NCBI GenBank assembly: GCA_027064305.1
Contig: JAMOPY010000015.1
Location: 1-55,942 of the forward strand
Source of the DNA: Methanobacteriota archaeon
GTDB lineage: Archaea > JAADCQ01 > Methanopyri > Methanopyrales > Methanopyraceae
Length of the DNA stretch: 55,942 nucleotides
Reading direction: 5' to 3'
How positions within the stretch are numbered: position 1 is the first letter of the stretch; each line of letters begins with the position of its first letter. The translations under genes and the position numbers were made by a program. Below are positions 5,760 to 25,949 of the stretch, piece after piece. The notes beneath the pieces were generated by a model. The model saw only the letters and a program-made list of their open reading frames with translations. It was not told the DNA's origin and did no database searches.

Positions 5760-5775
5760 GGCGGGGTGATCGAAG

Positions 5776-6186: not shown

Positions 6187-6200
6187 GGGGACGGTCGGGC

Positions 6201-6776: not shown

Positions 6777-6779
6777 CGG

Positions 6780-8341: not shown

Positions 8342-8370
8342 CGTCCGAGGTCGTCGGGGACGCTCTCGGT

Positions 8371-9423: not shown

Positions 9424-9457
9424 GCGAGGCCCTCCCCGGTTCGCCGCGCGACCGGGT

Positions 9458-9480
9458 TTCGTTATGGTGGTCGTAACGAT
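9458..9480. repeat. Dispersed intergenic palindrome, copy 2
   Basis: TTCGTTATG-GTGGT-CGTAACGAT followed by TGG. Confidence 0.8.
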
Positions 9481-9502
9481 TGGTCGGGGGGCGTTGGGGG
9501 GC

Positions 9503-10708: not shown

Positions 10709-10712
10709 TCGA

Positions 10713-11537
10713 TCACACCCGCTCGAGCTCCTTCTTGGCCTCCTCCACGTCGGCCTCCTCGTGGATGATGCGCGCGATGGCCCGCGTCATCGCCTCGCGC
10801 ATGCGCGGGGACTTGTGCGCGAAGATGTTCCGGCCGATGGCCGCGCCCGCGGCGCCCGCCTCGATCGCGCCCTTCACCATCTCGAGGATCTCCTCCGGCG
10901 TGTCCGCCTTCGGCCCGCCCGCGATGACCACCGGGACCGGGCAGCCCTTCACCACTTCCTTGAAGGAGTCGGGGTCGCCCGTGTAGTTCGTCTTGACGAT
11001 GTCCGCGCCCAGCTCCGCGCCCACGCGGGCCGCGTGCTTCACGTACTCCACGTCGAACTCATCCTCCACCTTCGGGCCGCGCGGGTACATCATCGCGACC
11101 AGCGGCATGCCCCACTCCTCGCACTTCCGGGCGACCTCACCCAGCTTCTGCAGCATCTCCGGCTCCTCCTCCGCCCCCACGTTCACGTGCACGCTGACCG
11201 CGTCCGCGCCCAGCCGGATCGCCTCCTCCACGTCCGCCACCTGCACCTTGTAGTTCGGGTCCGGGCCCAGCTCCGTGCTCGCGGAGAGGTGCACGATCAG
11301 CCCCACGTCGCGCCCGTACCCGCGGTGACCCGCGCGCACCATCCCCTTGTGCATCAGGACCGCGTTGGCGCCGCCCCGGGCCACCGCATCCACCGTCTCC
11401 TCCAGGTTCTTCAGGCCCGTAATCGGCCCCATCGTCACCCCGTGGTCCATCGGCACGATCAGCGTCCGGCCCGTCTCACGGTCCATGATCCGCTCCATCC
11501 GAATCCGCTTCCCGATGTGACCAACCGGACCCTCCAA
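10713..11537 (-). CDS. aroA': 2-amino-3,7-dideoxy-D-threo-hept-6-ulosonate (ADH) synthase, DhnA-type aldolase
   Basis: [35 protein letters not shown]; adjacent to aroB'; TTG start inferred. Confidence 0.9.
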
Positions 11538-11927: not shown

Positions 11928-13871
11928 TTATGCCACGGAGAGCGCCAGGTGCGCCAGCCCCCCGACCAGGGTGGCCACGCCCAGGTTCAGGGCGACGGAA
12001 AGCGCGGTTAGGCGCGCCGACCCGGTCTCCGAGTAGATCGCGCCGATCGTGGACGCGCACGGGATGTAGAGGGTGCTCACCAGGGCCAGGACGTACGCCT
12101 GGGCCGGGGCCAGCCGCAGGTGCAGGGTCTTGATCGTGGAGACGACCGTCTCCTTCGCCAGCACCCCCGTCAGCAGGGCCACCGCGCTGCCCCAGTCCAG
12201 CCCGAAGAGCGCCCCGGTCACCGGCTCCAGAGCCCTTCCGATCACCTCCACCGCGCTACCGTGGCCGAGCGGGGCCGGGTACTGGGTGAGCGCCCAGATG
12301 GCGATCGAGGCGGCGAGGATTACGGTGCCCGCCTTCCGCAGGAACTCGTTGGACCGCAGCCAGGTCACCCGGAACACGGTCCCAGGGTGCGGGCGCCGCA
12401 TCCTCGGGAGCTCGACCACCGTCCCCGCGTGGGGCTCGATTGGCCCGTACAGGAGCCGGTGCAGGAGCGCGGCGGTCCCGAGGAAGGTGAGGAGGGCGAT
12501 CGCGTAGATGGAGACGGCCGCGGGCACCCGCCACGGGTCGGGGAGGTGGCCGGTGAGGTAGGCGATCACCGTGAGCCGGGCGCTGCACGGCACGGCGGGG
12601 AGGGCGAGGACGGTCACCGTCAGCGCCCTCGGGTCGTCGATGATCCGGGCGCCCGTGACCCCCGGCACGTTGCAAGCGAGGGAGAGCGCGGCGGGGAAGA
12701 CGGACTTTCCGTGCAGGCCGAACCGGGAGAGCGGCCCGGAGAGGAGCGCGGCGACCCGGGCCGTGTACCCCGTGTCCTCGAGCGCGGTGAGCAGCAGGGT
12801 CATGATCAGGATGTACGGGTACATGGCCAGCACCGCGCCCACGCCCGCAAAGACCCCGTCCCCCAGGAGCCCGCCCCAGGGGTCCGGCAGGGCGCGCCTC
12901 GCCCAGTCTCCAAGGGCGTCGAACGCGTCCTCCAGCGGCTCGGCCAGCAGGTCACCCAAGTAGAAGGAGAGGGCGAACACGCCCGACAGGACCACGCCCG
13001 CGAGGAGCCCGCCCCAGAGCGGGTGGACGAGCACGCGGTCCAGCCGCGCCTGACGGTCGAGCGCGGGGCGCCCGGAGACGGCCGCGCGCACGATCTCGGA
13101 GGCCAGGTCATCCCGCGCCCGCTTGATCTCGGCGCGGGGATCCCGGCCCAGCGCCTCGCTCAGCTCCCGGTGCAACCGCTCGACCCGCTCGGATAGATCC
13201 CCACCCAGCCGCTCCGCCAGGTCCACGTCACCCTCCAGGAGCTTGATCGCGAGTCCCCGGGCCCGCTCCCGGGGCTCTCCCAGCCCGCGCTCCAGCTCCT
13301 CTGCGAGCCGGCGCACGGCGACCAGGATGGGTCGGGGATACTCCGCCCGAGGCGGGTCCGGCTCGATTCGGCCCTCCGCCACGTCGGCGATCGCCCGCTT
13401 GAGCCGCCGGATCCCGGTCCCGCGCTTGGCTGAGAGTGGCACGACAGGCACGCGGAGCCGGCGCTCCAGGGTCTGGGCGTCCACGCTCAGGCCCAGCCGC
13501 TCGGCCTCGTCCATCATGTTAACCGCGAGCACGAGGTGAGTGTGCCCGAGCTCGGCGATCTCCAGGAGGAGGGAGACGCCCCGGACGAGGTTCAGCGCGT
13601 CGGCCACCACGACGATCACGTCCGGGTGCTCGTCGAGCCGGCCGAGGAGCACGTCCCGCGTGATGCGCTGGTCCTCCGAGGTCGTGACGAGGCTGTACGT
13701 GCCGGGCAGGTCGACCACCCGGTACCGGGAACCCCGGAACTCGTACACGCAGGTCCGGCGTTCGACGGTGACCCCGGCCCAGTTCCCCACCTCGAGGGAG
13801 GTGCGGCAGAGCCGGGACATGATCGTCGTCTTGCCCACGTTCGGCGGTCCCACGAGCGCTACAACCCGCAT
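11928..13871 (-). CDS. feoB: Ferrous iron transporter B
   Basis: GPPNVGKT, VGNWAGVTVE, DLPGTYSL, NMMD, LEDTGY..R, CNVP, PCSARL, LYIPC. Confidence 0.95.
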   Translation of the reverse strand: MRVVALVGPPNVGKTTIMSRLCRTSLEVGNWAGVTVERRTCVYEFRGSRYRVVDLPGTYSLVTTSEDQRITRDVLLGRLDEHPDVIVVVADALNLVRGVSLLLEIAELGHTHLVLAVNMMDEAERLGLSVDAQTLERRLRVPVVPLSAKRGTGIRRLKRAIADVAEGRIEPDPPRAEYPRPILVAVRRLAEELERGLGEPRERARGLAIKLLEGDVDLAERLGGDLSERVERLHRELSEALGRDPRAEIKRARDDLASEIVRAAVSGRPALDRQARLDRVLVHPLWGGLLAGVVLSGVFALSFYLGDLLAEPLEDAFDALGDWARRALPDPWGGLLGDGVFAGVGAVLAMYPYILIMTLLLTALEDTGYTARVAALLSGPLSRFGLHGKSVFPAALSLACNVPGVTGARIIDDPRALTVTVLALPAVPCSARLTVIAYLTGHLPDPWRVPAAVSIYAIALLTFLGTAALLHRLLYGPIEPHAGTVVELPRMRRPHPGTVFRVTWLRSNEFLRKAGTVILAASIAIWALTQYPAPLGHGSAVEVIGRALEPVTGALFGLDWGSAVALLTGVLAKETVVSTIKTLHLRLAPAQAYVLALVSTLYIPCASTIGAIYSETGSARLTALSVALNLGVATLVGGLAHLALSVA

Positions 13872-13881
13872 TCCGGTCCCC

Positions 13882-14109
13882 CTACTCCTCTTCCTCCACG
13901 AGAACCTTGAACGCGAGGCCGCGGCCGATCGAGAACGTGCCCCCCTCGGTGCGGACCACGACCGGGCCCGGGCCGGAGCGGATCACCTCCACCCGAGCGC
14001 CCGGCCGTAGCCCGAGGTTGTACAGCATGGCGGCCGCGCCCCGGCCCGCCACCACGTCCACGATGCGGACCGTGCGGCCCTCCTCCACCTCCGCCAGCGA
14101 CTTCGGCAA
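13882..14109 (-). CDS. feoA: Ferrous iron transport protein A
   Basis: LYNLGLRPGARVEVIR..GPVVV..FSIGRGLA; directly upstream of feoB. Confidence 0.92.
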   Translation of the reverse strand: MPKSLAEVEEGRTVRIVDVVAGRGAAAMLYNLGLRPGARVEVIRSGPGPVVVRTEGGTFSIGRGLAFKVLVEEEE

Positions 14110-14130
14110 GCTCCCGGCTCCCCGCGGCGT

Positions 14131-14170
14131 GTTAGGCCGCCCTAACGGGCCCTCATTATATAATCTTCGC
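14131..14170 (-). promoter_or_regulatory. feoAB promoter with DtxR/MntR-type operator
   Basis: Minus strand reads CGAAGATTATATAA, then GTTAGG-GCGG-CCTAAC (14131-14146). Confidence 0.8.
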
Positions 14171-15496
14171 CCACAGGGCCGCGTTCCGCAGCGCCCGCAC
14201 CGCCCGCTCCGGCGAGGGGAACGTCGGCACGCCCGCCTCCTCCAGCGTCCGCACGCCCACCGCCACCGAGTGCCGCCCCATCCACACCCCCAGCACGGGT
14301 CCGGGGAACTCCTCCGCGAACTCCGCCACCACCCGGGCCGTTCGCGCCGGCTCGGTCACGCTCTGCGGGGTCAGGATCACGATCACCGCCCCGTACCGGT
14401 CCGGGTCCGCGAACTCCTCCAGCGCGACCCGGTACCGCTCCGCGTCCGCGTCCCCCAGCACGTCCACCGGGTTCCCCGTCGCCGCCTCCTCCGGCAGGAC
14501 GGACGGGTCACCGTCCGGCTCCGGCAGCCTGAACCCCGACTCGTGCAGCGCGTCCGCCGCGAGGATCCCCCCGCCCCCCGCGTTCGTCACCACGAGCACC
14601 CGGTCCGAGCGCGGCGGGCCCGCCTTCGCCAGGAGCTTCGCCGTGTCGAACGCCTCCTCGAATCCCTCCACGAAGATCCCGCCACACTGCTCGATCACTC
14701 CCCGGTACACCTCGCCCGAGCCCGCCAGCGAGCCCGTGTGCGTGCTCACCGCCTCCGCGCCCGCCTCCGTCCGACCCCCCTTCAGCACGATCACCGGCTT
14801 CCGTCCCGCGCACGCGGATAGCGCCTCCGCGAACGCGTCCCCGTCCTTCACCCCCTCCAGGTAGAGGACCACCACGTCCGTCTCCTCATCCCCGGCCAGG
14901 TACTCCAGGAAGTCCGGGAAGTCCAGGTCCGCCGCGTTCCCCAGGCTCACGAACTTGCTGAACCCCACCCCGATCGCGCCCACGTCCCCCGAGGAGAACC
15001 AGTCGATGACCGACGTCGCCAGCGCCCCGCTCTGCGACACGAACGCGATGCTCCCCGCCGGCGGCATCTCCGCCGCGAACGAGGCGTTCAGCCCGGACCG
15101 CGCGTTGATGATCCCCAGGCAGTTCGGGCCCACGATCCGCACGCCCGCCTCCCGCGCCGCCCGCACCAGCTCCCGCTCCAGCTCCTCGTTCCCCGCCTCC
15201 GAGAAGCCCGCCGAGATGACCACGCAGTACTTGACGCCCGCCTCCCCCGCCTCGCGCACGATCTCCGGCACGATCGGCGCGGGCACGACGATCACGGCCA
15301 GGTCCACCGGCCCCGGCACCTCCGAGAGCGACGGGTAGCACCGCACGCCCAGGATCTCGTCCGCGTGCGGGTTGACCGGGTACACCTCACCCTCGAACCC
15401 GGCGAGCAGGTTCCGCAGCACGCTGTGCCCCACCTTCCGCGGGTCCCGGGACGCCCCCACGACCGCGACCGCGCGCGGCTCGAACAACCGCTCCAA
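14156..15496 (-). CDS. Acyl-CoA synthetase (NDP-forming), alpha subunit
   Basis: VAVVGAS, YPVNP, VISAGFSE, GPNCLG, SQSGA, LYLEG, HTGSLAG, TNAGG, NPVD. Confidence 0.9.
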   Translation of the reverse strand: MERLFEPRAVAVVGASRDPRKVGHSVLRNLLAGFEGEVYPVNPHADEILGVRCYPSLSEVPGPVDLAVIVVPAPIVPEIVREAGEAGVKYCVVISAGFSEAGNEELERELVRAAREAGVRIVGPNCLGIINARSGLNASFAAEMPPAGSIAFVSQSGALATSVIDWFSSGDVGAIGVGFSKFVSLGNAADLDFPDFLEYLAGDEETDVVVLYLEGVKDGDAFAEALSACAGRKPVIVLKGGRTEAGAEAVSTHTGSLAGSGEVYRGVIEQCGGIFVEGFEEAFDTAKLLAKAGPPRSDRVLVVTNAGGGGILAADALHESGFRLPEPDGDPSVLPEEAATGNPVDVLGDADAERYRVALEEFADPDRYGAVIVILTPQSVTEPARTARVVAEFAEEFPGPVLGVWMGRHSVAVGVRTLEEAGVPTFPSPERAVRALRNAALWAKII

Positions 15497-15865
15497 CTAC
15501 CCCTCCCCCAACAGCGCCCGGATCGCGTCCAGCACCGTCACCACGCCCACCACGCGACCCTCCTCCACGACCACCGCCCGATCCTGACCCGCCGCCGCCA
15601 TCCGATCCAGCACCACCTCCAGCGGCTCGTCCGGACCCGCCTCCACCGCCCGACGCGCCACCTCACCCGCCCGCAGCTCCCGCCACTCCCCGCTCGCCAG
15701 CGCCCAGACCACGTCCACCGACGTCACGATCCCGACCAACCGCCCGTCCTCCACCACCGGCACCCCGTGAATCGACGCCTCCGAGAGCGCCCGCAGCACC
15801 CGCTCCAGCGGTTCGTCCGGCTCCACCGCGATCACGTCCTCAACCATCACGTCCCGCACGCGCAC
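15497..15865 (-). CDS. CBS-domain pair protein
   Basis: VRDVM..VPVVEDGRLVGIVT..D..VVEEGRVVGVVTVLD. Confidence 0.85.
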   Translation of the reverse strand: MRVRDVMVEDVIAVEPDEPLERVLRALSEASIHGVPVVEDGRLVGIVTSVDVVWALASGEWRELRAGEVARRAVEAGPDEPLEVVLDRMAAAGQDRAVVVEEGRVVGVVTVLDAIRALLGEG

Positions 15866-15896
15866 GCCCGGAACCCCCGCCCACCCGCGCCGGCGG

Positions 15897-15922
15897 ATCA
15901 TATAAGGTTAGGCGCGCCGAAC
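15897..15922 (+). promoter_or_regulatory. TATA plus imperfect DtxR/MntR-type operator upstream of the ferredoxin
   Basis: CATATAAG, then GTTAGG-CGCG-CCGAAC (15907-15922, one mismatch). Confidence 0.6.
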
Positions 15923-15940
15923 CCCGGGCGGGGGCTCCCG

Positions 15941-16156
15941 TTGGGCGAGACCCTCGAGGTGGAGACCCCAAGCGCCCGCTTCACCCTCGACACCGACCGG
16001 TGCACCGGGTGCGGCGAGTGCATGGAGGCCTGCCCCACCGGCGCCCTGCTCGTCGCCGAGGCGTACCTCGAGGTCGACGAGAGCCGGTGCCGAGCCTGCG
16101 GCAGCTGCGCCCGCGCCTGCCCCACCGGAGCCCTCCGGATGCAGCCCAGGGCGTGA
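15941..16156 (+). CDS. 2[4Fe-4S] ferredoxin
   Basis: CTGCGECMEACP and CRACGSCARACP; TTG start inferred. Confidence 0.88.
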   Translation: MGETLEVETPSARFTLDTDRCTGCGECMEACPTGALLVAEAYLEVDESRCRACGSCARACPTGALRMQPRA

Positions 16157-16199
16157 TTACTTACCAGCCCCCGGCCCGGCGGGGCCGGGGTGGCCCGCC

Positions 16200-16904
16200 C
16201 TGACCGCGACCCGCAGGCCCACCAAGGGGGAGCTTCGGGAGCTGGAGGAGGTCCTGCGGGAGCTCACCGGCTCCGACCTCGGGATCCGGGACCGCGAGGT
16301 CACGATCGAGCGCATCCGCGGCCCCATCCGCGCCGAGCGCGTGTTCCTGGACGGCCGCCCCATCCTCACGATCACCTTCGACCCCTGGACCGCCTCCTGC
16401 GCGTACACCCTCACCCCGCACGGCGCCCGCGAGGCCGAGCGGATCACCGGCGAACGACCCGAGCGCCGCCACCTCGTGCGCAAGGATCCCCACGGCCTCC
16501 TCGACTTCGAACTCACCGGAACCAAGCGCGACCTCGAGCGCGCCATCCACCGCACCCTTGAGGCCTGCGACGTGGACGTCCTCGAGCTCCGGACCGCGAC
16601 CGAGCGCGTCCACGGGGTCGAGCTCACCGGCCTCGCCCTCTACACCGCCCGCGAGTACCTGTACGTCGACGTCATCCCACCCGACCCGGCCGGCCGCCCC
16701 AACCCCGTCAACGCCGTCGCCCGGCTCCTCCACGCCTTCACCGGCGAGGAGACCGAGCCCTGGACCCACCCCGAGTACCGCTTCCTCGGCGTCCGACCCG
16801 TCCAGGACGGTAAGGAGGCCACCGCCGCCCTCCGCGACGCGACCGTCACCTTCCGCGCCACCCTCACCCCGCGCGGCCTCCAACTCCGCGCCCACCGGGG
16901 GTAA
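16200..16904 (+). CDS. Hypothetical protein, probable CTG start
   Basis: Coding-like frame extends 47 codons upstream of the track's GTG to a CTG preceded by GGGGTGG. Confidence 0.6.
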   Translation: MTATRRPTKGELRELEEVLRELTGSDLGIRDREVTIERIRGPIRAERVFLDGRPILTITFDPWTASCAYTLTPHGAREAERITGERPERRHLVRKDPHGLLDFELTGTKRDLERAIHRTLEACDVDVLELRTATERVHGVELTGLALYTAREYLYVDVIPPDPAGRPNPVNAVARLLHAFTGEETEPWTHPEYRFLGVRPVQDGKEATAALRDATVTFRATLTPRGLQLRAHRG

Positions 16905-16908
16905 CCCC

Positions 16909-17586
16909 GTGTACAAGCAGCGCTTCGTCCTCGACACCACCGCCTTCACCCACCAGGACGTCGTCGACCGTCTCGGTGACGGCGACCTCTGTCGAGCCGC
17001 CTCCCGGCTCCTCGACCTCATCGCCCACGCCCGCCTGAAGCTCCACGTCAGCTGCTACGTCCCCTACCCCACCGTCTACCGCGAGCTCAAGGGCTTCCTC
17101 AACCGCCACGGGTGCCCCGACCTCACCACCCGCATCGACACCTGGATCGTCAAGAAGACCCCCAACCGCTACGAGGTCCGCGTCCCCGCCCGCCTCTTCA
17201 TGGCCTACGTCAAGGACATGCGCGAGCGCCTCGACCGCGGCCGCAAGCGCGCCGAAAAGGCCATCTGGGAAGCCGCCCTCGAGACCTACGAGATCATGCT
17301 CCGCGAGGAGGCCGACGTGCCCAAGGAGAAGATCATCCGCGAGGTCATCGGCGAGACCGTCCGCCGCTTCCGCCGCAAGTACCGCCGCACCGTCCGCCAC
17401 GGCACCCTCGACAGCGCCCCCGACCTCGACGTCCTCCTCCTCGCCAAGGAGCTCGACGCCGCCGTCGTCGCCCAGGACGAGGGTATCGAGCGCTGGGCCC
17501 GCGAGCTCGGCCTCCGCTACATGCCCGCCACCTCCTTCCCTCACATGATCCAGGAGTACCTAGAACTCGCCCGGGAGGAGGACTGA
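16909..17586 (+). CDS. RNA-free RNase P homolog (HARP, UPF0278/PIN_5 family)
   Basis: KQRFVLDTTAFT, IVKKTPNRYE, MRERLDRG, GTLDSAPDLDVLLLAKELDAAVVAQDEGIERWA. Confidence 0.88.
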   Translation: MYKQRFVLDTTAFTHQDVVDRLGDGDLCRAASRLLDLIAHARLKLHVSCYVPYPTVYRELKGFLNRHGCPDLTTRIDTWIVKKTPNRYEVRVPARLFMAYVKDMRERLDRGRKRAEKAIWEAALETYEIMLREEADVPKEKIIREVIGETVRRFRRKYRRTVRHGTLDSAPDLDVLLLAKELDAAVVAQDEGIERWARELGLRYMPATSFPHMIQEYLELAREED

Positions 17587-19028
17587 TGCGCCTCGCGCAC
17601 CATCTCAAGCCCGCCTTCGCCGTCCCCGGCGACGACCTCCATGAACCCTACCTCGAGCTCGCTGAACGCGACGAACTCGTCCGCACCAACCGCGAGGACA
17701 CCGCCGCCTACGCCGCCATCGGCGCCGCCGAGGTCTCCAACGAGCCCGCCGCCCTCCTCGCCACCCGCGGCCCCGGCCTCGCCCACGCCCTACCCGGCCT
17801 CGCCTGCGCCCTCGCCGATCACGTCCCCATCCTCTGCATCACCGGCGAACCCCTCGACCAGGGCTTCCAATCCCTCCTACCCAGCCTCGAGTCCAACCGG
17901 GCCCGGCTCACCGTAACCCGCGACCCCCGAGAGGCCGCGCGCGCCCTCGCCCGCTCCCAACCCGCCGTCCTCACCCGACCCCAAACCCCCGACGAGCTCG
18001 AACCCCACCTCCGCGAGACCCGCCCACCGCAGCCCACCGACGGGGAGATCGAGGAGGTCCGACGCCGCCTCCAGGGCAGGAAGGTCGCCCTCCTCGTCGG
18101 CCGCGGCTGCTACCGCGCCCGCGCCACCGAACACCTCGAACGCCTCGCCGAACGCTTGAACGCCCCCATCGTCCAGACCATGCGCGGCCGCGGCGTCGTC
18201 CCCGAGTACCACCCTCGCAACTACGGCGTCGTCGGCCTCCGCGGCTGGGCCAACCACGTCCTGCGGGAGGCGGACGTCATCCTCGCCCTCGGCGCCCGCC
18301 TCACCGAGCGCACCCTCCCCGAGGAACCCGACGCCGAGATCATCGCCGTCACCCTCCACCTCAACGGCCCCGCCGACCTGCACCTCGAGTGCGACCCCGC
18401 ACCACTCCTCCGAGCCCTCCTCAAGCAACCGCCCGAGACGCGACCCTGGAGGCCCGAGCGCCGCGAGCCCGACGAGCCCGACCTCCACGCCTACCGCGTC
18501 GTCAAAACCGCCCTCCGCGCCTGGATCGGCCCCGTCACCCTCGACTCCGGCCAGCACACGCCCCTCGCCCTCCTCGCCGCCCGCCTCTCCGCCCCCAACG
18601 AGCTCATCCACTCCGGCGCCTTCTGCCCCGTGGGCTTCGCCCTCCCCGCCGCCCTCGGCGCCGCCACCCGCACCCCCGAGCCCGTCCTCGCCATCACCGG
18701 CGACGGCGGCTTCCTCGCCACGCACCACGAGCTCGAGACCGTCGTCCGCGAGGACCTACCCGTCACCGTCCTCGTCCTCCGCAACCGAGAGCTCGGCTTC
18801 ACCCGTCAGACCGCCGGCCTCGACGACCCGGAACCCGCCGGGATGGACCTCCCCACCGACCCCGCCGACCTCGCCGAGGCCTACGGCACCGAGGTCCACC
18901 GCCTCGAACGCGACCGGACCGACGAGCTCCACCGCATCCTCCGCGACGCCGAGATGCAGCGCGAACCCACCGTCATCGTCGTCGAGCTGCCCCGGGAGGA
19001 CGTCCCGCTCCCCGACCGGCCCGGCTGA
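17586..19028 (+). CDS. Thiamine-diphosphate-dependent enzyme, acetolactate synthase large subunit-like (divergent)
   Basis: PGD, REDTAAYAAIG, TRGPGLA, GFALPAALGA, GDGGF...RN. Confidence 0.8.
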   Translation: MRLAHHLKPAFAVPGDDLHEPYLELAERDELVRTNREDTAAYAAIGAAEVSNEPAALLATRGPGLAHALPGLACALADHVPILCITGEPLDQGFQSLLPSLESNRARLTVTRDPREAARALARSQPAVLTRPQTPDELEPHLRETRPPQPTDGEIEEVRRRLQGRKVALLVGRGCYRARATEHLERLAERLNAPIVQTMRGRGVVPEYHPRNYGVVGLRGWANHVLREADVILALGARLTERTLPEEPDAEIIAVTLHLNGPADLHLECDPAPLLRALLKQPPETRPWRPERREPDEPDLHAYRVVKTALRAWIGPVTLDSGQHTPLALLAARLSAPNELIHSGAFCPVGFALPAALGAATRTPEPVLAITGDGGFLATHHELETVVREDLPVTVLVLRNRELGFTRQTAGLDDPEPAGMDLPTDPADLAEAYGTEVHRLERDRTDELHRILRDAEMQREPTVIVVELPREDVPLPDRPG

Positions 19029-19082
19029 AAGTCGAGCGGACGCGGGGTGCACCGTCGCTCCCCGGGATCGGGCGCGGTCGGG

Positions 19083-19148
19083 CGGCCTCGGGGCCCGCGA
19101 CTGCGATCATCCCCGGCGGTCGCCGTGGGTCCACCTCCTCATCGGCCG
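19083..19148 (-). ncRNA. C/D box sRNA candidate
   Basis: CGGCC stem; C ATGAGGA; 12-nt guide; degenerate D'/C' (GCGA...ATGATCG); 12-nt guide; D CCGA; GGCCG stem. Confidence 0.55.
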
Positions 19149-19171
19149 ATCGTTCCGATGGTCGTAACGAT
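19149..19171. repeat. Dispersed intergenic palindrome, copy 3 (at the skew switch)
   Basis: CCG-ATCGTTCCG-ATGGT-CGTAACGAT-TGG; symmetry extends into both flanks. Confidence 0.8.
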
Positions 19172-19212
19172 TGGGTTTTGTTTTTCGGTCTCGGGGGACC
19201 GCGGGGCGCCTC

Positions 19213-19268
19213 GAGATGGGGAGAACCCCGGTCTCTGAGCGGTGATGAAGGATTGGCGTGCCGACGGG
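19213..19268 (+). ncRNA. C/D box sRNA candidate
   Basis: ATGGGGA-GAACCCCGGTCT-CTGA-gcg-GTGATGA-AGGATTGGCGTG-CCGA; two 12-nt guides. Confidence 0.7.
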
Positions 19269-19269
19269 T

Positions 19270-20292
19270 TCACGGGGTGATGAGGCCGAGCTGCCGGGCG
19301 CGTTTGAGGAGGGTTTTGAGGGGTGGGTCCCGGGGTTCGAGCCGGAGTGGATCGTCGAGGTCGTGCTCTTCCCGGAGCCATTCGAGGGCGCGCTGGGCGG
19401 ATCGGTGGGTCTCGCGGTCCCAGGCCCAGGGTAGTGGGATGAGGATGGGATAGGCGGTCCGGCCGTCGTGGAGGACGATGGCGGTGTCGTAGTGGTAACC
19501 GCAGTGGACGCCCTCCTCGGTGAGGAGGCGGTGGAGCTCGTCGTTGAGCCGGGCGGTGGTGAGGACGCCGTCGGGGTCCGGGGTCTTGCGGAGGTAGTCG
19601 CGGACGCCGCAGCCGCTCTCGTTCTTCCACCATTCGAAGCGGGGGAAGTGGAGGTCGGCCTCGCGCAGGGCGGCGACGATGTGACCCTTGTCGAGCTTGA
19701 GGTCGAGGAGCGGGCGGTACTCGAGGGCCGTGGGGTGCCGGGTGGTGGGCGGCATCTGGGCGCGGTGTGGGGCCTCGCCGTAGTTGGCGCCGCCGAGGAT
19801 GAGGGAGCCGGGAAAGGCGTGGGCGGCGGCCTCGAAGCGGAGCTTGCCGCACTGTTGGCAGAGGTCGCGTTTGGCGTTGTGGGGCGGTGGTGGGACCTGG
19901 AGGTGGTAGAAGCTGACGGGGGTCTCGTGGTGTTGGTCGAGGTGTCGGGCGACTAGGTGGGCGCGGGCGTGGACGAGGGCGCGGGGCATGCCGGGGAAGA
20001 AGCCGACGGTGTAGAGGATGAGCTCGACGCCGTACTCCTCGCAGGCGCGGGCGGCGGCGACGGCCAGGACGGCGCTGTCCATGCCCTCGAGGGCGACGCA
20101 GACGCGGTTGGGCTCGGTGCGGTGGAGGGTGCGGAGGATGGCCTGGGTGATGCGGTCGAGTAGGCCCCGTTCGTGGCGGTGGTGGGGGTAGACGGCGTCC
20201 CAGACGGGGGCCTCGTGGGTGGGTGGGGCCTCCTTGACGGTCTGGAGGTCGCGTTTGGGGGGTTGGATCTCGTGGATTTCGATGCGGTCCAG
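19270..20292 (-). CDS. Divergent PP-loop-like protein, probable CTG start
   Basis: Frame extends 70 codons beyond the track's ATG; VCVALEGMDSAVLA is a degenerate PP-loop; CQQC, ILGGAN, YRPLL, GC. Confidence 0.6.
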   Translation of the reverse strand: MDRIEIHEIQPPKRDLQTVKEAPPTHEAPVWDAVYPHHRHERGLLDRITQAILRTLHRTEPNRVCVALEGMDSAVLAVAAARACEEYGVELILYTVGFFPGMPRALVHARAHLVARHLDQHHETPVSFYHLQVPPPPHNAKRDLCQQCGKLRFEAAAHAFPGSLILGGANYGEAPHRAQMPPTTRHPTALEYRPLLDLKLDKGHIVAALREADLHFPRFEWWKNESGCGVRDYLRKTPDPDGVLTTARLNDELHRLLTEEGVHCGYHYDTAIVLHDGRTAYPILIPLPWAWDRETHRSAQRALEWLREEHDLDDPLRLEPRDPPLKTLLKRARQLGLITP

Positions 20293-20331
20293 GGAGTTCT
20301 CGCCCCCTGCGGAGGTTATTTGGGTGGGGGC

Positions 20332-20447
20332 CCCTGTGCCCGGGCGTCGGCGCGCGCGTCATCCCACCTGGGTGGTCGGCCGTGGGTGTCCCGGGCGTTG
20401 GGCCGGGCCCTCATCGGCGGCCCGGTAGGCTTCCGTCGGGCCCGGGT
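20332..20447 (-). ncRNA. K-turn-containing H/ACA-like sRNA candidate (two hairpins)
   Basis: Hairpin CCGGGCCC-GA...ATGA-GGGCCCGG, then GCCCGGG...CCGA-CCACC/GGTGG-GATGA...CCCGGGC-ACA. Confidence 0.5.
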
Positions 20448-20471
20448 CGCGGCGTTTGGGGGCCGGCGTGC

Positions 20472-21179
20472 ATGGCCTTGTTGGAGGTTAAAGACCTGAG
20501 GGTGAGCGTGGGTGAGGAGGTGATCGTGCGGGACGCGTCGTTGCGGGTGGAGTCGGGGGAGATCGTGGACCTCGTGGGGCCGAACGGGTCGGGGAAGAGC
20601 ACGCTGGCGCGGGCGATCATGGGCAGTGAGGGGTACGAGGTGGAAGGGGAGATTCGGTTCAAGGGGGAGGAGATCTCGGACCTGCCGATGCACGAGCGGG
20701 CGCGGCGGGGGTTGACGCTGTGCTGGCAGGAGCCGGCGCGGTTTGATGGGCTGACGGTGGGGGAGTACGTGATGGCCGGGTGCGAGGAGGAGGAGTGGGC
20801 GCGGCGGTGCCTGAGGATGGTGGGGTTGGATCCGGACGAGTACTGGGAGCGGGAGTGCGGGGAGGGGTTGAGCGGGGGTGAGCGGAAGCGGGTGGAGTTG
20901 GCGGCGGTGATGGCGATGCGGCCGGAGTTGGTGATCCTGGACGAGCCGGACGCGGGGTTGGACATGTCCTCGTTGGAGGACTTGGCGCGGTTGATCGAGT
21001 GGATGCGGGAGCAGGGGTCGTCGGTGCTGTTGATCACGCACAGTCGGGATCTGGCGGAGGAGGTGGGGGATCGGGCGTACCTGATGCTGGACGGTCGGAT
21101 CGTGGAGGAGGGTGATCCGGAGGAGATCGTGTACAAGTGTCGGATCTGCGGGGGCGATCTGGTGTGCGGGGCGGAGTGA
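20472..21179 (+). CDS. sufC: Fe-S assembly ABC ATPase, SufC/SmsC type
   Basis: GPNGSGKST, ERARRG, LSGGERKR, ILDEPDAGLD; C-terminal CRICGGDLVC. Confidence 0.9.
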   Translation: MALLEVKDLRVSVGEEVIVRDASLRVESGEIVDLVGPNGSGKSTLARAIMGSEGYEVEGEIRFKGEEISDLPMHERARRGLTLCWQEPARFDGLTVGEYVMAGCEEEEWARRCLRMVGLDPDEYWERECGEGLSGGERKRVELAAVMAMRPELVILDEPDAGLDMSSLEDLARLIEWMREQGSSVLLITHSRDLAEEVGDRAYLMLDGRIVEEGDPEEIVYKCRICGGDLVCGAE

Positions 21180-22087
21180 GCGAGGAGGAGGTGTTCGGCC
21201 CGGCCGGTTACCACGCGGATCCGGACGCGCCGCGGGTGGTGGTGCTGGAGAATCGGGTGGTGAACGTGCGGGAGCGGGAGGGGCTGGTGATCGAGGCGGA
21301 GGAGCGGGAGGACGGCGTGCGAGCGGAGCTGGTGGTGAGGGAGGGGGTGCGGTTGGAGGAGCCGGTGCACTTCTGCGTGGGGGTACCGTGGGAGGAGGGG
21401 GTGCAGCGGATCGAAACGCGGGTGGTGGTGGAGTCGGGGGCGCGGGTCACGCTGTTGTCGCACTGTTCGTTCCCGCGGGCGGAGGACGTGCTGCACGAGA
21501 TGGTGGCGGAGTTCGTGGTGGAGGATGGCGCGGAGTTGGAGGTGCGGGACGTGCACTATCACGGGGAGCGGGGCGTGCGGTTGCGGGCGGAGTACGAGCT
21601 GGAGGTGGGCGAGGGGGGCCGGTTGTCGAGCGAGTTTCGGTTGACGCGGGGTCGGGTGGGTGAGTTGGAGTGGGTGTCGCGGGGTGTGGTGCGTCGGGAG
21701 GGTTCGTTGGAGAGCGTGGTGCGGGTGATGGCGAGGGGAGAGGACGTGGTGGACGTGGAGGAGAGCGTGCGGTTGGTGGGTGAGGACGCGGGGGCGGTGT
21801 TGGACTCGCGGTCGGCGGCGATCGATGGGGCTCGGGTACGGTTCGTTGGTGAGATCTCGGGGGAGGCGCCGGGGGCGCGGGGCCACGTGGAGTGCTCGGA
21901 GATCATTCGAGGGGACGGTCGGGTGGAGAGCGTGCCGAAGCTTCGGGTGGTGGATCCGGACGCGCGTCTGACGCACGAGGCGGCGTTGGGCACGCTCGAG
22001 CGCCGGGAGATCGAGGCGCTCATGTCTCGGGGCCTGTCGGAGGAGGAGGCGGTCGAGCTGCTCGTGGAGGCGATGCTAAGGGGGTAG
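21176..22087 (+). CDS. sufB: Fe-S assembly scaffold, SufB/SufD (SmsB) type
   Basis: PVHFC, HCSFP, ARGHVEC, LTHEAALG, LMSRGLSEEEA; GTGA overlap with sufC. Confidence 0.9.
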   Translation: MSEEEVFGPAGYHADPDAPRVVVLENRVVNVREREGLVIEAEEREDGVRAELVVREGVRLEEPVHFCVGVPWEEGVQRIETRVVVESGARVTLLSHCSFPRAEDVLHEMVAEFVVEDGAELEVRDVHYHGERGVRLRAEYELEVGEGGRLSSEFRLTRGRVGELEWVSRGVVRREGSLESVVRVMARGEDVVDVEESVRLVGEDAGAVLDSRSAAIDGARVRFVGEISGEAPGARGHVECSEIIRGDGRVESVPKLRVVDPDARLTHEAALGTLERREIEALMSRGLSEEEAVELLVEAMLRG

Positions 22088-22092
22088 CCGGT

Positions 22093-22752
22093 TTGGCCGT
22101 GGAGGAGGGCGACTTCGTGAAAATCCACTACACGGGTCGCGTGAAGGAGACTGGCGAGGTAATCGACACGACGCGGGAGGAGGTAGCGGAGGAGCACGAC
22201 CTGGACGTGCGGCCCGGTCCGGTGGTGGTCGTGGTGGGCGCGGGGATGGTGTGGGAGCCGGTGGAGGAGGAGTTGAAGGGTCGGAAGCCCGGGGACTCGT
22301 TCGAGGTGGAGGTGCCGCCGGAAAAGGCGTTCGGCGAGCGGGACGCGTCGTTGGTGCGAACGTATCGTCGGTCGGAGGTGCGGGGTGAGGTGCGGCCGGG
22401 CGGTACGGTGGTGACGCCGGAGGGTCGTCGCGGCCGGGTGGTGAGCGTGGACGGTGGCCGGGTGCGGGTGGATCTGAACCATCCGCTGGCGGGGAGGACG
22501 CTGGTATACGAGGTGGAGGTGATAGGCGTGCTCGAGGACGTGGTGGAGCGCGCGGAGGGGTTGTTGGGGACGTTGGCGCCCGATGTGGACGCGGAGGTGG
22601 AGTGGGACGGTGAGGGGACGCTGCGGGTGCGGGTGGAGGGTGAGGATGCGGTGCGTGGTGACTGGGTGGGTGCGAAGCGGCGGTTCGCGGAGTTGATGCG
22701 GGAGTACGATGAGCGGGTGGAGGAGGTGGTCGTGGAGGAGGTGTTCAAATAA
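22093..22752 (+). CDS. FKBP-type peptidyl-prolyl isomerase (long archaeal type)
   Basis: [34 protein letters not shown]. Confidence 0.9.
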
Positions 22753-23803
22753 CGCCGGTCTCGCGGGCGGCGCGCTCGGCGGCCTCGGGGGTGAGGCCGC
22801 GGTCGCCGAGGATGGTGTAGCGTTCGGGGCGGATCTCGTGGGCGGTGCAGAGGGCCTCGATGAGCTCGTCCTCGCTGACGCCGAGCTCCTCGGCGGTGGT
22901 GGGGGCGCCGGCTCGCCGTAGGGTGTCGCGGATGCGGCGCCAGTCGCCGCCGTGTAGGTACTCCATGATGATGGTGCCGACGCCGCACTGCTCGCCGTGG
23001 AGGGCGGGGCGGTCGGCGACGACATCGAGGGCGTGGCTGAAGAGGTGCTCGGAGCCGCTGCAGGGGCGGGAGGAGCCGGCGATGCTCATGGCGACGCCGC
23101 CGCTGATGAGGGCCTGGACGAGCTTCTTGATGCCCTCGGGCAGGAGCTGGCCGATGGGCTTGGCGTTCCTCATGACGATCTTGGCGGCCATGAGGGAGAG
23201 GCTGGAGGCGTACTCGCTGTAGGGCTCGTTGCGGAGGCGGTGGGCGAGGCGCCAGTCCTTGACGGCGGTGACGTTGGAGACGACGTCGCCGACGCCGGCG
23301 CGGATGAGTCGGTCTGGGGCCTCGCGGATCACGTCGATGTCGGCGAGGATGGCGAGGGGGGCCTGGGCGGGCTCGGAGTAGGGTCGGTCCTCGCGGCGGA
23401 TGGAGGCGAAGGGGGAGGCGATGCCGTCGTGGGAGGCGGAGGTGGGGACGCTGATGAAGGGGATGCGCAGCCGGTGCGAGGCGACCTTGGTCACGTCGAT
23501 GACCTTGCCGCCGCCGACGGCGATCGCGACGTCGGCCCGCGCGTCCCGAAGCTCCTCCAAAGCCTTTTTCACGTCCTCCTCGGTGGATCCCCGGACGATC
23601 ACGAGGGCGGTCTCGTACCCGGCCTCCTGCAGGTGCTCCTCGACGTCTCGGCCCGCCACCTTCCTCGTGGTGGGGCCCGTGAGGACGGCGGCCGTGCCCT
23701 CGGGGATGCCGACGCTGCGCAGGAGGTCGGGGGCGTCGGGTAGGACGCCGGTTCCCACGAGGACCTCGCGCGGGAGCTGCATTCTCTTCTTCGGGATCTT
23801 CAC
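22745..23803 (-). CDS. egsA: sn-glycerol-1-phosphate dehydrogenase
   Basis: [51 protein letters not shown]; start approximate. Confidence 0.93.
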
Positions 23804-23830
23804 GGTCACCGGCCCCGGTGGGGTGATCGG

Positions 23831-25234
23831 TTGGAGTTCTCGGAGTGGTACGCGGAGGTGTTGAGGAGCGCGGAGGTCATGGACGTGCGGTACCCGGTTA
23901 AAGGCCTGTACGTGTGGCTGCCGTACGGGTTCGAGATCCGGCGTCGGGTGATCGAGCGGCTGCGGAGGCGGCTGCGGGAGACGGGGCACCGGGAGGTTCT
24001 GTTCCCGACGCTGATACCGGAGACGCAGTTGGAGCGGGAGTCGGAGCACATCGCGGGGTTCGAGGACGAGGTGTTCTGGGTGACGCACGGGGGGCTGAAG
24101 GAGCTGGACGAGAAGCTGGCGCTGCGGCCGACGAGCGAGACGGCGATCTACCCGATGTTCGCGCTGTGGATCCGGTCGCACGCGGACCTGCCGTTGAAGG
24201 TGTTCCAGATCGTGAACACGTTCCGGTACGAGACGAAGCACACGCGGCCGCTGATCCGGATGCGGGAGATCACGACGTTCAAGGAGGCGCACACGGCGCA
24301 CGCGACGCGGGAGGAGGCGGAGGAGCAGGTGCGGGAGGCGTTCGAGCTCTACTCGTCGTTCTTCGAGGAGCTGGGCGTCCCGTACGTGGCCTCGGTGCGG
24401 CCGGAGTGGGACAAGTTCCCGGGCGCGGAGTACACGGTGGCGTTCGACACGCTGATGCCGGACGGGCGGGCGCTGCAGATCGGGACGATCCACATGCTGG
24501 GGCAGAACTTCTCGCGGACGTTCGAGGTGACCTTCGAGACGGAGGAGGGGGAGCAAGAGTACGCGTACATGACCTGCTACGGCGTCTCGGACCGCGTGGT
24601 GGCCTCGGTGATCGCGATCCACGGGGACGAGCACGGGCTCGTGCTGCCGCCGGACGTGGCCCCGTACCAGGTGGTGATCGTGCCGATCCTGAAGAAGGGC
24701 GTGCGGAAGAAGATCCTGCGAAAGGCCCGGGAGGTGCGGGAAGAGCTCTCCGAGGTGGCGCGGGTCAAGCTCGACGACCGGGACGTGAGTCCGGGACGAA
24801 AGTTCCATTACTGGGAGCTGAAGGGTGTACCACTGCGGGTGGAGCTCGGGGCGCGCGAGTTAGAGGAGGGGACGGCGGTCGTCTTCCGGCGGGATGAGTT
24901 GGAGCGGGAGACGTACTCGCTCTCGGAGCTGCCGGACGTGGTGCCGCGGCTGCTGGAGGAGGTGCAGGAGAACCTGCGTCGGCGCGCCTGGGAGCGCTTT
25001 GAGGAGCGCCTGCACCGGGCCGAGTCGTTGGAGGAGGTGCGCGAGTTCGTCGGGGAGGGGATCGTGGAGACGGGTTGGTGCGGGTCCGAGGAGTGCGGTC
25101 GCCGGTTGGAGGAGGAGGTGGAGGGGGACGTGCTCGGGACGCCCTACCCGGAGGAGCGGGAGCCCGAGGTTGAGCGGTGCCCCGTGTGCGGGGAGCCCGC
25201 CGAGCGCACGATCCGGGTGGCCAAGACGTACTGA
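23831..25234 (+). CDS. proS: Proline-tRNA ligase (archaeal type)
   Basis: [35 protein letters not shown]-terminal Zn Cys residues and AKTY. Confidence 0.96.
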
Positions 25235-25249
25235 GCCGGGGTGTGATCG

Positions 25250-25897
25250 TTGCAGCTGACGGACGTGATGCGTGAGCTGGATCAGCTGATGAAGGGCACG
25301 ACGACGGTGGGGATCAAGGCGAGGGACGCGGTGGTGCTCGCGGCGGATCGGCGCGCGGTGATGGGCAACCTGATCGCGGGCAAGGAGGTCCGGAAGATCT
25401 TCCGGGTGCACGACCGCGTGGGCGTGACCACGGCGGGCTCGGTCGCGGACGCCCAGAAGATCGTGGACCTGATGCGGGCGGAGGCGCGGCTGTACCGGCT
25501 GCGGCACGGGCGGGACATCAGCGCGCGGGCGATCGCGAACGTGACCTCCCACGTCCTGCACTCGAGTCTCAAGTCCTTCCGACCGTACCTGGTGCAGCTG
25601 ATCATAGGGGGGTTCAACCAGGAGGAGCCCGCCCTGTACAACCTGGACCCCAGCGGCTCGATCATCGAGGAGGACTACACGGCCACGGGCTCGGGCTCTC
25701 CCACGGCCTACGGCGTCCTGGAGGCCGAGTACGAGGAGGACATGGACCTGGAGGACGCGATCGAGGTGGCCGTGCGCGCCGTGCGCTCGGCCCTGGAGCG
25801 GGACACGGGCACGGGTGAGGGGGTGACCGTGGTCACGATCACGCGGGACGAGGGGTACCGGGAGCTGCCGGAGGAGGAGGTCGAGAGCTACCTGTAG
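25250..25897 (+). CDS. psmB: Proteasome beta subunit
   Basis: Propeptide then KG/TTTVG, AADRRA, GSGS, ERD. Confidence 0.95.
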   Translation: MQLTDVMRELDQLMKGTTTVGIKARDAVVLAADRRAVMGNLIAGKEVRKIFRVHDRVGVTTAGSVADAQKIVDLMRAEARLYRLRHGRDISARAIANVTSHVLHSSLKSFRPYLVQLIIGGFNQEEPALYNLDPSGSIIEEDYTATGSGSPTAYGVLEAEYEEDMDLEDAIEVAVRAVRSALERDTGTGEGVTVVTITRDEGYRELPEEEVESYL

Positions 25898-25949
25898 GCG
25901 CCCTCCGGCCCTCCCGGACGCCAACACCGGTGACGCCGGGGCGGCCACG

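Follow-up and report, generated by a model that had tools for sequence, protein, structure and literature searches.

Switches of GC skew are a well-known mark of replication origins in bacteria and in some archaea (Lobry-type skew). Archaeal GC skew has been described in a 2026 survey as limited compared with that of bacteria; the accessible part of this survey makes no mention of Methanopyrus and cites recombination-dependent replication in Haloferax and Thermococcus (PMC12999951). According to the available excerpts of two further papers, Cdc6/Orc1 is missing in Methanopyrales, the start of replication without Orc1/Cdc6 in this order and in Methanococcales is an open question (PMC3914693), and origin prediction in Methanopyrus strains was inconclusive (PMC5504354).

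The window analyzed here is a stretch of 55,942 nucleotides on contig C15 of a methanogen, assigned to the genus Methanopyrus from the names of homologues. The genome (G000) is 89% complete, and neither Cdc6_C (PF09079; control search positive in three archaea) nor the Bac_DnaA type (PF00308) has a match in it, which bears out the absence of an orc1/cdc6 gene noted in the preliminary description of this DNA. The Pfam families of the genes flanking the 19-kb centre of the window include neither orc1/cdc6 nor another replication gene.

At this centre, the plus strand changes from C/A-rich to G/T-rich, and this bias depends on the strand rather than on gene direction (1211 genes from a home-made caller, identities from Pfam). 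At four-fold degenerate sites, the plus strand is 84% C, 11% G, 3.0% A and 1.6% T in the left arm (14156-19028), and 80% G, 12% C, 6.0% T and 2.1% A between 19270 and 25234 in the right arm (19270-25897). In the left arm, the four-fold GC skew of the plus strand is -0.64 and -0.77 in the two minus-strand genes, an ADP-forming acyl-CoA synthetase-like gene (14156-15496) and a CBS gene (15497-15901), and -0.70, -0.90 and -0.86 in the three plus-strand genes (16341-16904, 16909-17586 and a TPP enzyme gene at 17586-19028). The right arm begins with a minus-strand gene without a Pfam family (19270-20082; +0.80), followed on the plus strand by a SufC-type ABC ATPase gene (20472-21179) and two SufBD genes (21137-22087 and 22093-22752) with +0.89, +0.80 and +0.68, by the minus-strand Fe-ADH_2 gene (glycerol-1-phosphate dehydrogenase-like, 22745-23809; +0.74), and by plus-strand genes for ProRS (23831-25234) and a proteasome subunit (25250-25897) with +0.64 and +0.38. 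All are ordinary housekeeping genes. The arms stop abruptly at gene borders 5-7 kb out; the genes just outside have four-fold skews of -0.06 and -0.28, and the skew is about 0 by 14.1 kb and 25.9 kb.

In 1-kb windows, GC skew runs from -0.16 to -0.31 between 13.5 and 19 kb and from +0.28 to +0.47 between 19 and 23 kb, returning to 0.00 at 25.5-26.5 kb, and AT skew has the opposite sign. GC and keto skew both switch from minus to plus independently of gene strand, the pattern by which origins are located from skew. Both arms rank among the six most extreme of the 988 5-kb windows of the genome, either tail considered. In the plus-strand genes, codon counts are CGC 77/CGG 12, CTC 102/CTG 6/TTG 1 and GTC 56/GTG 6 on the left and CGC 12/CGG 104, CTC 12/CTG 54/TTG 38 and GTC 11/GTG 139 on the right, and the minus-strand arm genes mirror these counts. 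Third codon positions remain 87-97% G+C. Codon positions 1 and 2 are shifted too, so the skew alters proteins as well. The preliminary description had already noticed the two compositions in genes of both strands and the flip of synonymous codons (CGC/CTC/GTC versus CGG/TTG/GTG); its hand counts per line are exact (15541, C36/G10; 18661, C33/G14; 19861, G32/C8; 20821, G35/C7), the four-fold sites give a stronger contrast than it claimed, and the skew persists at four-fold sites once gene strand and amino acid content are accounted for. Contigs containing the stretch were found in four public runs from two studies, one of them running across the centre (18945-21188, 11 differences), so an assembly chimera is excluded.

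The switch interval is defined by the flat bottom, at 18977-19174, of the cumulative G-C curve, whose lowest point is at 19022. The centre between the two convergent genes (19029-19269; GC 0.69) is indeed non-coding, as first stated, and apart from the palindrome treated below it occurs once in the genome. It holds two putative C/D-box-like small RNAs, at 19084-19147 on the minus strand (Rfam sR-tMet, 18.4 bits, cut-off 50, E=1) and at 19209-19266 on the plus strand (sR2, 17.1 bits, cut-off 42; sR23, 15.4 bits, cut-off 45). The window has no Rfam match at gathering level, the best sub-threshold scores being 15-18 bits against cut-offs of 42-50; the two small RNAs proposed earlier are no more than C/D-box-like hits below threshold (17-18 bits against 42-50). 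The candidates resemble archaeal C/D box sRNA genes in their terminal stems and in motifs like the C and D boxes, present on both strands, but as judged from the sequence they score far under the Rfam cut-offs for these. Compared with the sister species G003, 187 nt of the centre are retained at 88% identity, whereas in G001 and G002 only the last 56-60 nt are recognizable by blastn; this portion kept across the genus is the candidate at 19209-19266. A+T-rich sequence is confined to a single run, the 10-nt T tract TTTTGTTTTT, read directly at 19176-19185 on the plus strand. A search for inverted repeats between 18900 and 19400 yielded, besides the palindrome, a single weak pair of 11 nt. No sequence is common to the different dipole centres.

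The 23-bp palindrome, ATCGTTCCGA-TGG-TCGTAACGAT, lies at 19149-19171 with one mismatch to its family consensus and one arm mismatch. It had been called the most symmetric copy, a rank that belongs to the perfectly symmetric copy at 28973. Its suggested tie to the origin fails as well: over the 56 intergenic gaps that hold a palindrome the mean signed skew change is +0.04 (p=0.55), while large unsigned changes (>0.8) are enriched, in 5 of these 56 gaps against 4 of 1057. The palindrome belongs to the 3' side of stable RNA genes and is no origin box. It stands behind 24 of the 29 such genes, 6-14 nt from tRNA and 5S genes and 79 nt from the 16S gene, and 24 of its 64 copies are placed in this way.

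The guess that the site is one of several is borne out by three full dipoles in the genome, all switching from minus to plus: the one in the window, one on C40 centred on the 16S rRNA gene together with C/D-box-like sRNAs, and one split over the end of C10 and the start of C50, joined by synteny with the sister species. Arms of the same polarity occur at contig ends, where the inward-reading strand has a skew above +0.5 at 7 of 98 ends and below -0.5 at none (11 versus 1 at a threshold of 0.35; Wilcoxon p=7e-5). For neighbouring genes on opposite strands (n=322), the four-fold skews of the plus strand correlate with r=0.21 raw and r=0.54 once the mean coding-strand bias is removed (p=1e-25), and the 16 skewed runs with genes on both strands contain 26 outward and 25 inward genes by hand count. 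The magnitude of skew peaks beside the centre in both arms described here and on C40, C13, C33, C31 (28-33 kb) and C10. The arms carry a C-to-T signature: T exceeds A on the G-rich strand, TTG and GGT codons are more frequent where the G-rich strand is the coding one, and codons ending in A increase on the C-rich strand. Several centres have accumulated mobile genes and foreign DNA of low G+C content.

At the locus, four congeners share both gene order and orientation with G000, which rules out the inversion breakpoint named at first as a possible refutation. In the sister species (86-90% protein identity) the 19-kb dipole is present at the same place, and in G001, G002 and G004 the order is kept without the dipole; the underlying process is persistent, site-bound and restricted in lineage. 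The 413 kb of G003 contain two large dipoles, both minus to plus, and are otherwise flat. The 16S dipole is weakly present in both G001 and G002, and another weak dipole lies at the 23S gene of G001; in this complete genome (58% G+C), the absolute adjusted skew exceeds 0.6 in only 5 of 1359 called genes. A UPF0102/Mrr-like nuclease gene occupies the 19-kb spot in G001 and G002.

The reading that we put forward, tentatively and at a little under an even chance, is that the 19-kb site is a fixed centre from which unwinding or synthesis spreads outward in both directions over a short range, origin-like and distinct from a chromosome-wide origin. At each dipole, a DNA-level process would move outward both ways from a fixed centre for 2-7 kb, and the polarity of the switch does correspond to outward movement, as was claimed. 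The strand running 5' to 3' away from the centre would stay single-stranded far longer than its partner. Members of the genus grow near or above 100°C, and at such temperatures cytosines on the exposed strand would deaminate (C to T); together with the strong G+C pull of the genome, this could make third positions about 80-100% G on the exposed strand, and C on the other, irrespective of gene orientation. The best-fitting process would be recurrent outward bidirectional unwinding or synthesis in which the second strand lags, either as an origin-like initiation bubble or as strand-displacement or recombination-type synthesis, Orc1/Cdc6-independent and short in range; RNA genes or DUF1678 elements in the centres may serve as its anchors. 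Several observations sit badly with this. No replichore-scale skew was found in C15, with flanks near 0, or in the 413 kb of G003, flat but for the dipoles; the abrupt arm ends, which in 9 of 12 cases (by eye) fall where an outward-pointing gene or RNA gene has its 3' end, suit transcription better than forks; no A+T-rich unwinding element beyond the T tract is apparent, there is no nearby replication gene, and the centres share no sequence; genes adjoining centres mostly face them, head-on to outward forks; and G001 is almost devoid of strongly skewed genes. To our knowledge, the amplitude is also far above any known replication skew. The initial proposal of a non-canonical origin or another fixed bidirectional unwinding site stands with regard to polarity, strand independence and the several sites, but not with regard to long-range skew or to the three congeners that lack the switch.

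A broader and rather unlikely version holds that the dipoles are the Orc1/Cdc6-independent initiation zones of Methanopyrus, about ten dispersed short-range bidirectional sites. They would then have their anchors in insertion hot spots and in untranslated RNA genes (16S, 23S, small-RNA pairs), and R-loops or a factor peculiar to the genus would prime them, DUF1678/MK-1 being a candidate centre-binding protein, and they would be visible in the sequence because single-stranded DNA deaminates so fast near 100°C.

Transcription without any start of synthesis would be an unlikely sole cause. Strong divergent or read-through transcription from RNA genes in the centres, perhaps with R-loops, would expose the non-template strand outward. 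Kilobase-scale minus-to-plus skew occurs at eukaryotic bidirectional promoters, and centres do hold untranslated RNA genes (the 16S gene and C/D-box-like sRNAs on C40, the 23S gene in G001, and the sub-threshold candidates on both strands at 19 kb). The tendency of arms to stop at 3' ends of outward units extends to RNA-gene palindromes (C40 17397, C46 3733, C39 1219). However, annotated sense transcription runs the wrong way, rightward in the left arm (the TPP enzyme gene and two others) and leftward in the right arm (the gene at 19270 and the dehydrogenase gene), and the left arm on C40 is 88% C although the 16S gene and two protein genes there point rightward. The G+T-rich coding strand of transcription asymmetry was not found consistently in the arm genes, nor in the mcr operon: among the 12 arm genes, those nearest the centre and the dehydrogenase gene have a C-rich coding strand (-0.70 to -0.90) and the others a G-rich one, and in mcr, expected to be among the most-transcribed operons of methanogens, the coding strand lies at -0.10 to -0.57, not above zero. 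Furthermore, the pooled profile of 26 tRNA genes with the 16S and 5S genes is flat (-0.20 to +0.13), and the right arm on C40 runs through two palindromes at full strength.

It is improbable that a mobile or integrated element bearing DUF1678 (PF07913, MK-1 family; Pfam cut-off 25) drives the dipoles by nicking or by firing replication in situ, with repeated outward copying of the flanks. The two genes above cut-off, L012:7652-8350 (150 bits) and C10:17115-17711 (147 bits), lie outside the window in other dipole centres or genomes; the first occupies the centre of the 19-kb dipole in G003, and a DUF1678 gene sits in the C10/C50 centre in G000 and G003 alike. Arms of the right polarity flank 5 of the 8 G003 copies with readable flanks, and 2 of the 3 copies in the 413 kb are inside its two large dipoles. 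The family is confined to the genus (none in 14 control genomes), and at the 19-kb locus both gene and dipole are missing from G001 and G002. Nevertheless, the 19-kb centre of G000, with skew at least as strong as that of G003, and the 16S centre are without DUF1678, and 18 of 19 matches in G002 are skewless (mean 0.015 left, 0.002 right; two adjacent matches are one copy). The copy in the G003 centre is itself unskewed and may thus have entered an already existing centre late, and DUF1678 has no recognizable fold.

A classical main chromosomal origin working without Orc1/Cdc6 would account for the polarity and for the lack of Cdc6 in the genome, but is quite improbable given the missing replichore-scale skew, at least three such sites plus the arms at contig ends, and the three congeners without it. 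A hot spot of recurrent double-strand breaks or recombination with long resection, which the foreign DNA and mobile genes at several centres and the nuclease gene of G001 and G002 might suggest, is highly improbable: resection from 5' to 3' leaves 3'-ending strands single and predicts a plus-to-minus switch, so the polarity already contradicts it unless purine loss rather than deamination dominates, and a single event would lower the G+C content, which is still 87-97% at third positions. Scarcely credible is the absence of any strand process, even though 12 of the 28 skewed runs are one-stranded (e.g., on C23 and C24) and could be operons preferring C-ending codons, as presumably highly expressed genes of G000 do, since codon selection is rejected by coding skews of +0.77 and -0.90 within one arm and by the shifted positions 1 and 2, transfer from a skewed donor by the housekeeping nature of the genes and by a divergence from G001 no greater in the skewed islands than elsewhere (74.8% identity for island genes, 72.9% for the others), and inversion by the conserved order and orientation.

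The dipoles give exact coordinates (18977-19174 here) for tests of initiation, fork direction, single-strandedness and R-loops, with the congeners that keep the gene order but lack the dipole as a built-in control. Even if no replication started there, a 10-kb chromosomal zone with 80-100% G at synonymous sites of one strand, independent of gene direction, would illustrate how far coding sequence may be remodelled by a local DNA transaction at very high temperature.

Regarding the fixed bidirectional centre that we favour, the switch resembles Lobry-type origins in passing from C>G to G>C on the plus strand, with T>A accompanying G>C, and in its independence of gene strand at synonymous sites. 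It differs in its reach (5-7 kb against a replichore), in its four-fold amplitude (0.6-1.0 against roughly 0.05-0.2), and in occurring several times per 1.2 Mb without an initiator gene and without conservation in three congeners. The only case of comparable four-fold amplitude known to us is the strand-displacement asymmetry of vertebrate mitochondria, where the strand left single becomes G+T-rich, graded by exposure time; there, a whole small replicon is affected in one direction, whereas the dipole has short two-sided arms within a chromosome. Eukaryotic CpG-island and bidirectional promoters with R-loops share the local kilobase-scale minus-to-plus dipole, and dipole centres include untranslated RNA genes, but dipole-adjacent genes are transcribed toward the centre and the amplitude is much larger. 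In E. coli, R-loop-primed stable DNA replication is a form of origin-independent initiation, and we know of no described compositional footprint of such initiation sites. The dipoles would resemble the origin-independent initiation of Haloferax, Thermococcus and E. coli in having no dedicated origin-binding initiator and in a possible tie to highly transcribed untranslated genes.

The + strand of the window changes from C-rich in a left arm (14156-19028) to G-rich in a right arm (19270-25897), on either side of a short centre (19029-19269), an arrangement referred to here as a dipole. Measured per 1-kb window, GC skew stays near -0.3 between 14 and 19 kb, reaches +0.3 to +0.47 between 19 and 23 kb and has faded by 25.5 kb; AT skew is its mirror image. 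The cumulative G-C curve has its minimum at 19022, within a plateau at 18977-19174. At four-fold degenerate sites, the + strand GC skew is -0.64 to -0.90 in all left-arm genes (two on the minus and three on the plus strand) and +0.38 to +0.89 in all right-arm genes (two minus, five plus), irrespective of strand, and -0.06 and -0.28 in the genes immediately outside. These sites are 84% C and 11% G on the left, and 80% G, 12% C, 6% T and 2% A on the right, and the two main bases stand at 48% and 45% genome-wide. Codon positions 1 and 2 are shifted too. The skew observation of the preliminary description is thus confirmed and extended: its four hand counts of single lines were all exact on recount, and the flip of synonymous codons was reproduced exactly. 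Both arms lie within the six most extreme 5-kb windows at either tail among 988 windows of the host genome, and four public runs of two studies contain the stretch in their contigs, one of which spans the centre. Codon selection is excluded as the source, since coding-strand skews of +0.77 and -0.90 occur within one arm; the ordinary housekeeping functions of the genes and the same trend at non-synonymous positions also speak against it. Elsewhere in the window, the gene at 9503-10708 (minus strand) has a coding-strand four-fold skew of -0.72 between unskewed neighbours; high expression and a use of C-ending codons, as in the mcr operon, are its probable explanation.

At the corresponding position the sister species (G003), whose proteins here are 86-90% identical to those of the host (G000), switches in the same way, from -0.6 to between +0.4 and +0.55 by third-position phase and from between -0.82 and -0.91 to between +0.70 and +0.89 at four-fold sites. 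Three other congeners (G001, G002 and G004) show no switch at the locus despite conserved gene order and orientation. An inversion breakpoint, raised in the preliminary description as another source of the skew, is therefore excluded by synteny. The presence of the feature in two species also excludes transfer and one-off hypermutation; either event should have lowered G+C, and third positions remain at 87-97% G+C. The TPP gene left of the centre, the gene at 19270-20082 and the SufBD genes of the right arm are only 59-68% identical to G001 and G002, which had suggested faster protein change in the arms. This reading was withdrawn because, over 974 ortholog pairs, skewed genes are not more diverged than others (74.8% versus 72.9% identity, p=0.18), a result that likewise speaks against transfer or hypermutation.

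Genes of the host assembly (1.21 Mb in 50 contigs, 89% complete, about 70% G+C) were called by our own caller on the codon-position pattern of G+C (1211 genes, 91% coding), and local genes were named by Pfam. After removal of the mean coding-strand bias, + strand skew correlates between opposite-strand neighbours genome-wide (n=322, r=0.54). At least two strongly skewed genes in a row occur in 28 runs totalling 78.9 kb, or 6.5% of the assembly, and both strands are represented in 16 of them; the remaining 12, which may partly be operons preferring C-ending codons, were left out of the island count. Gene orientations and arm ends over the assembly were tallied by hand. A second full dipole lies on contig C40, with a left arm at 5679-10826 reaching -1.00, where one gene has C at 157 of 157 G+C four-fold sites, and a right arm at 13000-17158 reaching +0.97; the 16S rRNA gene, together with C/D-box-like sRNAs, forms its centre. 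Several C/D-box-like GGGATGA...CTGA units, bracketed by palindromes, lie on either side of this gene (C40:10300-10600 and 12800-12960). The rRNA genes are unlinked in this genus, with 64 kb between 16S and 23S in G001 and 6 kb between 5S and 16S in the host. A third dipole is broken by an assembly gap, its minus arm being the end of C10 and its plus arm the start of C50; the two are adjacent in the sister species, on either side of a segment with reduced G+C. Contigs C13, C33 and C31 carry one-sided arms. Inward-reading strand skew exceeds +0.5 at 7 of 98 contig ends and falls below -0.5 at none, so that further centres lie in assembly gaps, all of like polarity. The earlier suggestion that the site is one of several is borne out by these dipoles and contig-end arms. 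Stretches of 38-65% G+C that border skew arms on their strong side (C31:26325-28246 in the host; C15:111.7-116.5 kb in the sister species), whose ORFs have no family match, look like foreign DNA inserted at centres.

Across 413 kb of the sister species the background is flat, and just two large features stand out, both minus-to-plus dipoles, at the window's locus and at C10/C50, with an additional small dipole at 181-184 kb. Global skew is absent from the complete G001 genome (58% G+C), and strongly skewed genes are nearly so, yet weak arms of the same polarity are found over 4 kb upstream of 16S (+0.32 to +0.49) and on both sides of 23S (-0.3 upstream, +0.13 to +0.27 downstream). The 16S arm is found in G002 too. 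Coding-strand skew of G001 orthologs, taken from a cruder caller (87% coding), correlates with that of 88 island-like host genes (r=0.57, slope 0.16). Some centres are therefore old and were later amplified in the high-G+C lineage, and that of the window is new to the lineage of the host and its sister. The host and G001 differ by 12 points in G+C (70% versus 58%) and, in parallel, in the standard deviation of gene-level skew (0.30 versus 0.17). Loss of repair genes behind the lineage difference is ruled out, because Endonuclease V is encoded in all six genomes of the genus (G000-G005) and the UDG superfamily PF03167 in none, so that the lineages do not differ in these genes.

The centre is a 241-bp spacer between convergent genes, the TPP gene (17586-19028, plus) and the gene at 19270-20082 (minus). 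It contains a minus-strand C/D-box-like match (19084-19147), a 23-bp palindrome (19149-19171) with a T tract to its right, and C/D-box-like matches on the plus strand from 19209-19266 onward. The two sRNA candidates proposed earlier thus keep C/D-box-like matches on both strands, all of them below the Rfam gathering level; at that level Rfam finds no RNA gene in the window, and ARAGORN no tRNA. The predicted fold of 19030-19190 is no better than that of shuffled sequences (z=-0.92). About 190 bp of the centre are common to the sister species only, and blastn of 19029-19269 against the host, the sister's stretch and G001 gave only palindrome-sized matches beyond orthologous centres. The sister species has an additional DUF1678 gene at the centre, and in G001 and G002 the place is taken by a UPF0102/Mrr-like nuclease gene. 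The latter (271 aa, UPF0102/Mrr_cat/NucS_C-like; L014:7333-8148 in the G001 stretch, with a matching spot in L013 of G002) lies between the TPP gene and the ortholog of the 19270 gene, and was lost or replaced in the host and its sister.

The palindrome, ATCGTTACGA-N3-TCGTAACGAT, has 64 copies in the host genome with at most 4 mismatches (62 of them intergenic) and none in the reversed genome. Copies lie within 100 nt downstream of 24 of 29 stable RNA genes: for 22 of 27 tRNA genes and for 5S the distance is 6-14 nt, and for 16S it is 79 nt. Large unsigned skew changes (>0.8) are enriched in gaps carrying it (5 of 56 versus 4 of 1057 other gaps). The proposed coincidence of copies with skew switches fails, since the signed change has no trend (mean +0.04) and the four other window copies (9458, 28973, 44031 and 54103) show no switch. 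With so many stable RNA genes followed by a copy and no signed trend, the palindrome is rejected as an origin box; termination or processing of stable RNAs is its probable role. No known RNA gene adjoins the other 40 copies, among them all five of the window, and these may point to small RNAs that are not yet annotated.

A persistent process, anchored to particular sites and working on the DNA strands with outward polarity, is required, because the polarity is uniformly minus-to-plus, the skew is strongest next to the centre, and T is enriched on the G-rich strand and A on the C-rich strand, with TTG and GGT codons where the coding strand of a gene is the G-rich one. The strand running 5' to 3' away from the centre would stay single-stranded for long, and cytosine deamination on it, together with the genome's G+C pressure, would yield the observed composition. 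DNA synthesis that moves outward and completes the second strand late, in an origin bubble, by strand displacement or by recombination-type synthesis, would have the matching polarity. DNA synthesis or unwinding is the reading that we tentatively favour. Break resection is rejected by reasoning, since it predicts the opposite polarity. Dominant antisense transcription with R-loops would also give the observed polarity; RNA polymerase alone is a rather unlikely agent. Sense transcription is excluded, as genes next to centres are mostly transcribed inward; at 16S, annotated transcription upstream is all rightward and the arm is composed as if by a leftward process. The coding strand of the mcr operon is not G-rich, which also argues against sense transcription, and the flat pooled profile of 26 tRNA genes, 16S and 5S rules out stable RNA genes as general sources.

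A version of the process driven by an element is improbable. Its candidate, DUF1678 (the MK-1 family), is specific to the genus (no match in 14 control genomes), with 19 matches in G002, 10 each in the sister species and G005, 3 in G004 and 2 each in the host (C10:16832-17711 and C31:36008-37643) and G001. One copy lies inside the sister's version of the window centre (L012:7652-8350), the C10/C50 centre has a copy in both species, and arms of the right polarity occur at 5 of 8 readable copies of the sister species. The gene is absent from the window centre in the host, and 18 near-identical copies in G002 have no skew, which rules it out as a sufficient cause; it may therefore be a mobile gene targeting centres and not what causes them. 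Both host copies adjoin arrays of inverted GATTACAAT/ATTGTAATC pairs spaced by about 80-90 nt, and many copies of the sister species lie, repeat-like, 1-2 kb from contig ends. The structure model is confident (pLDDT 90.9). Foldseek against the PDB gave nothing at E<=0.001 (best E=0.08, TM 0.15), and the wide VIA-align search peaked at Z 3.7; its weak winged-helix regulator matches, at Z 3.0-3.5, are below a trustworthy level. A search of Atlas returned only its own family, PHROGs gave no family for nine centre proteins, and a full-text search for 'DUF1678' found no paper.

A true chromosome-wide origin is very improbable: long-range skew is missing, the arms have abrupt distal ends, genes are head-on and the dipole is absent in congeners. 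The origin proposed earlier is partly supported, in the sense of one among several fixed sites of bidirectional unwinding, and stays hypothetical as a replication origin. All remaining readings carry very little weight.

The absence of cdc6 held in a search of the host assembly (89% complete) for Cdc6_C, which gave no match; DnaA/AAA-type proteins gave none either. The host encodes methyl-coenzyme M reductase, its relatives form a single genus with small genomes of 1.4-1.7 Mb, and it is taken to be a high-G+C Methanopyrus species from the 'Methanopyrus kandleri' naming of one protein's homologues. In the literature searched on Methanopyrus replication origins and skew, no description of local dipoles of this kind was found. 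According to the text available for each source, the replication origins of two Methanopyrus strains could not be confirmed (PMC5504354), and Cdc6/Orc1 is reported absent from Methanopyrales (PMC3914693). A 2026 survey of archaeal skew, whose available text does not mention Methanopyrus, describes the extent of GC skew in archaea as limited compared with bacteria (PMC12999951).
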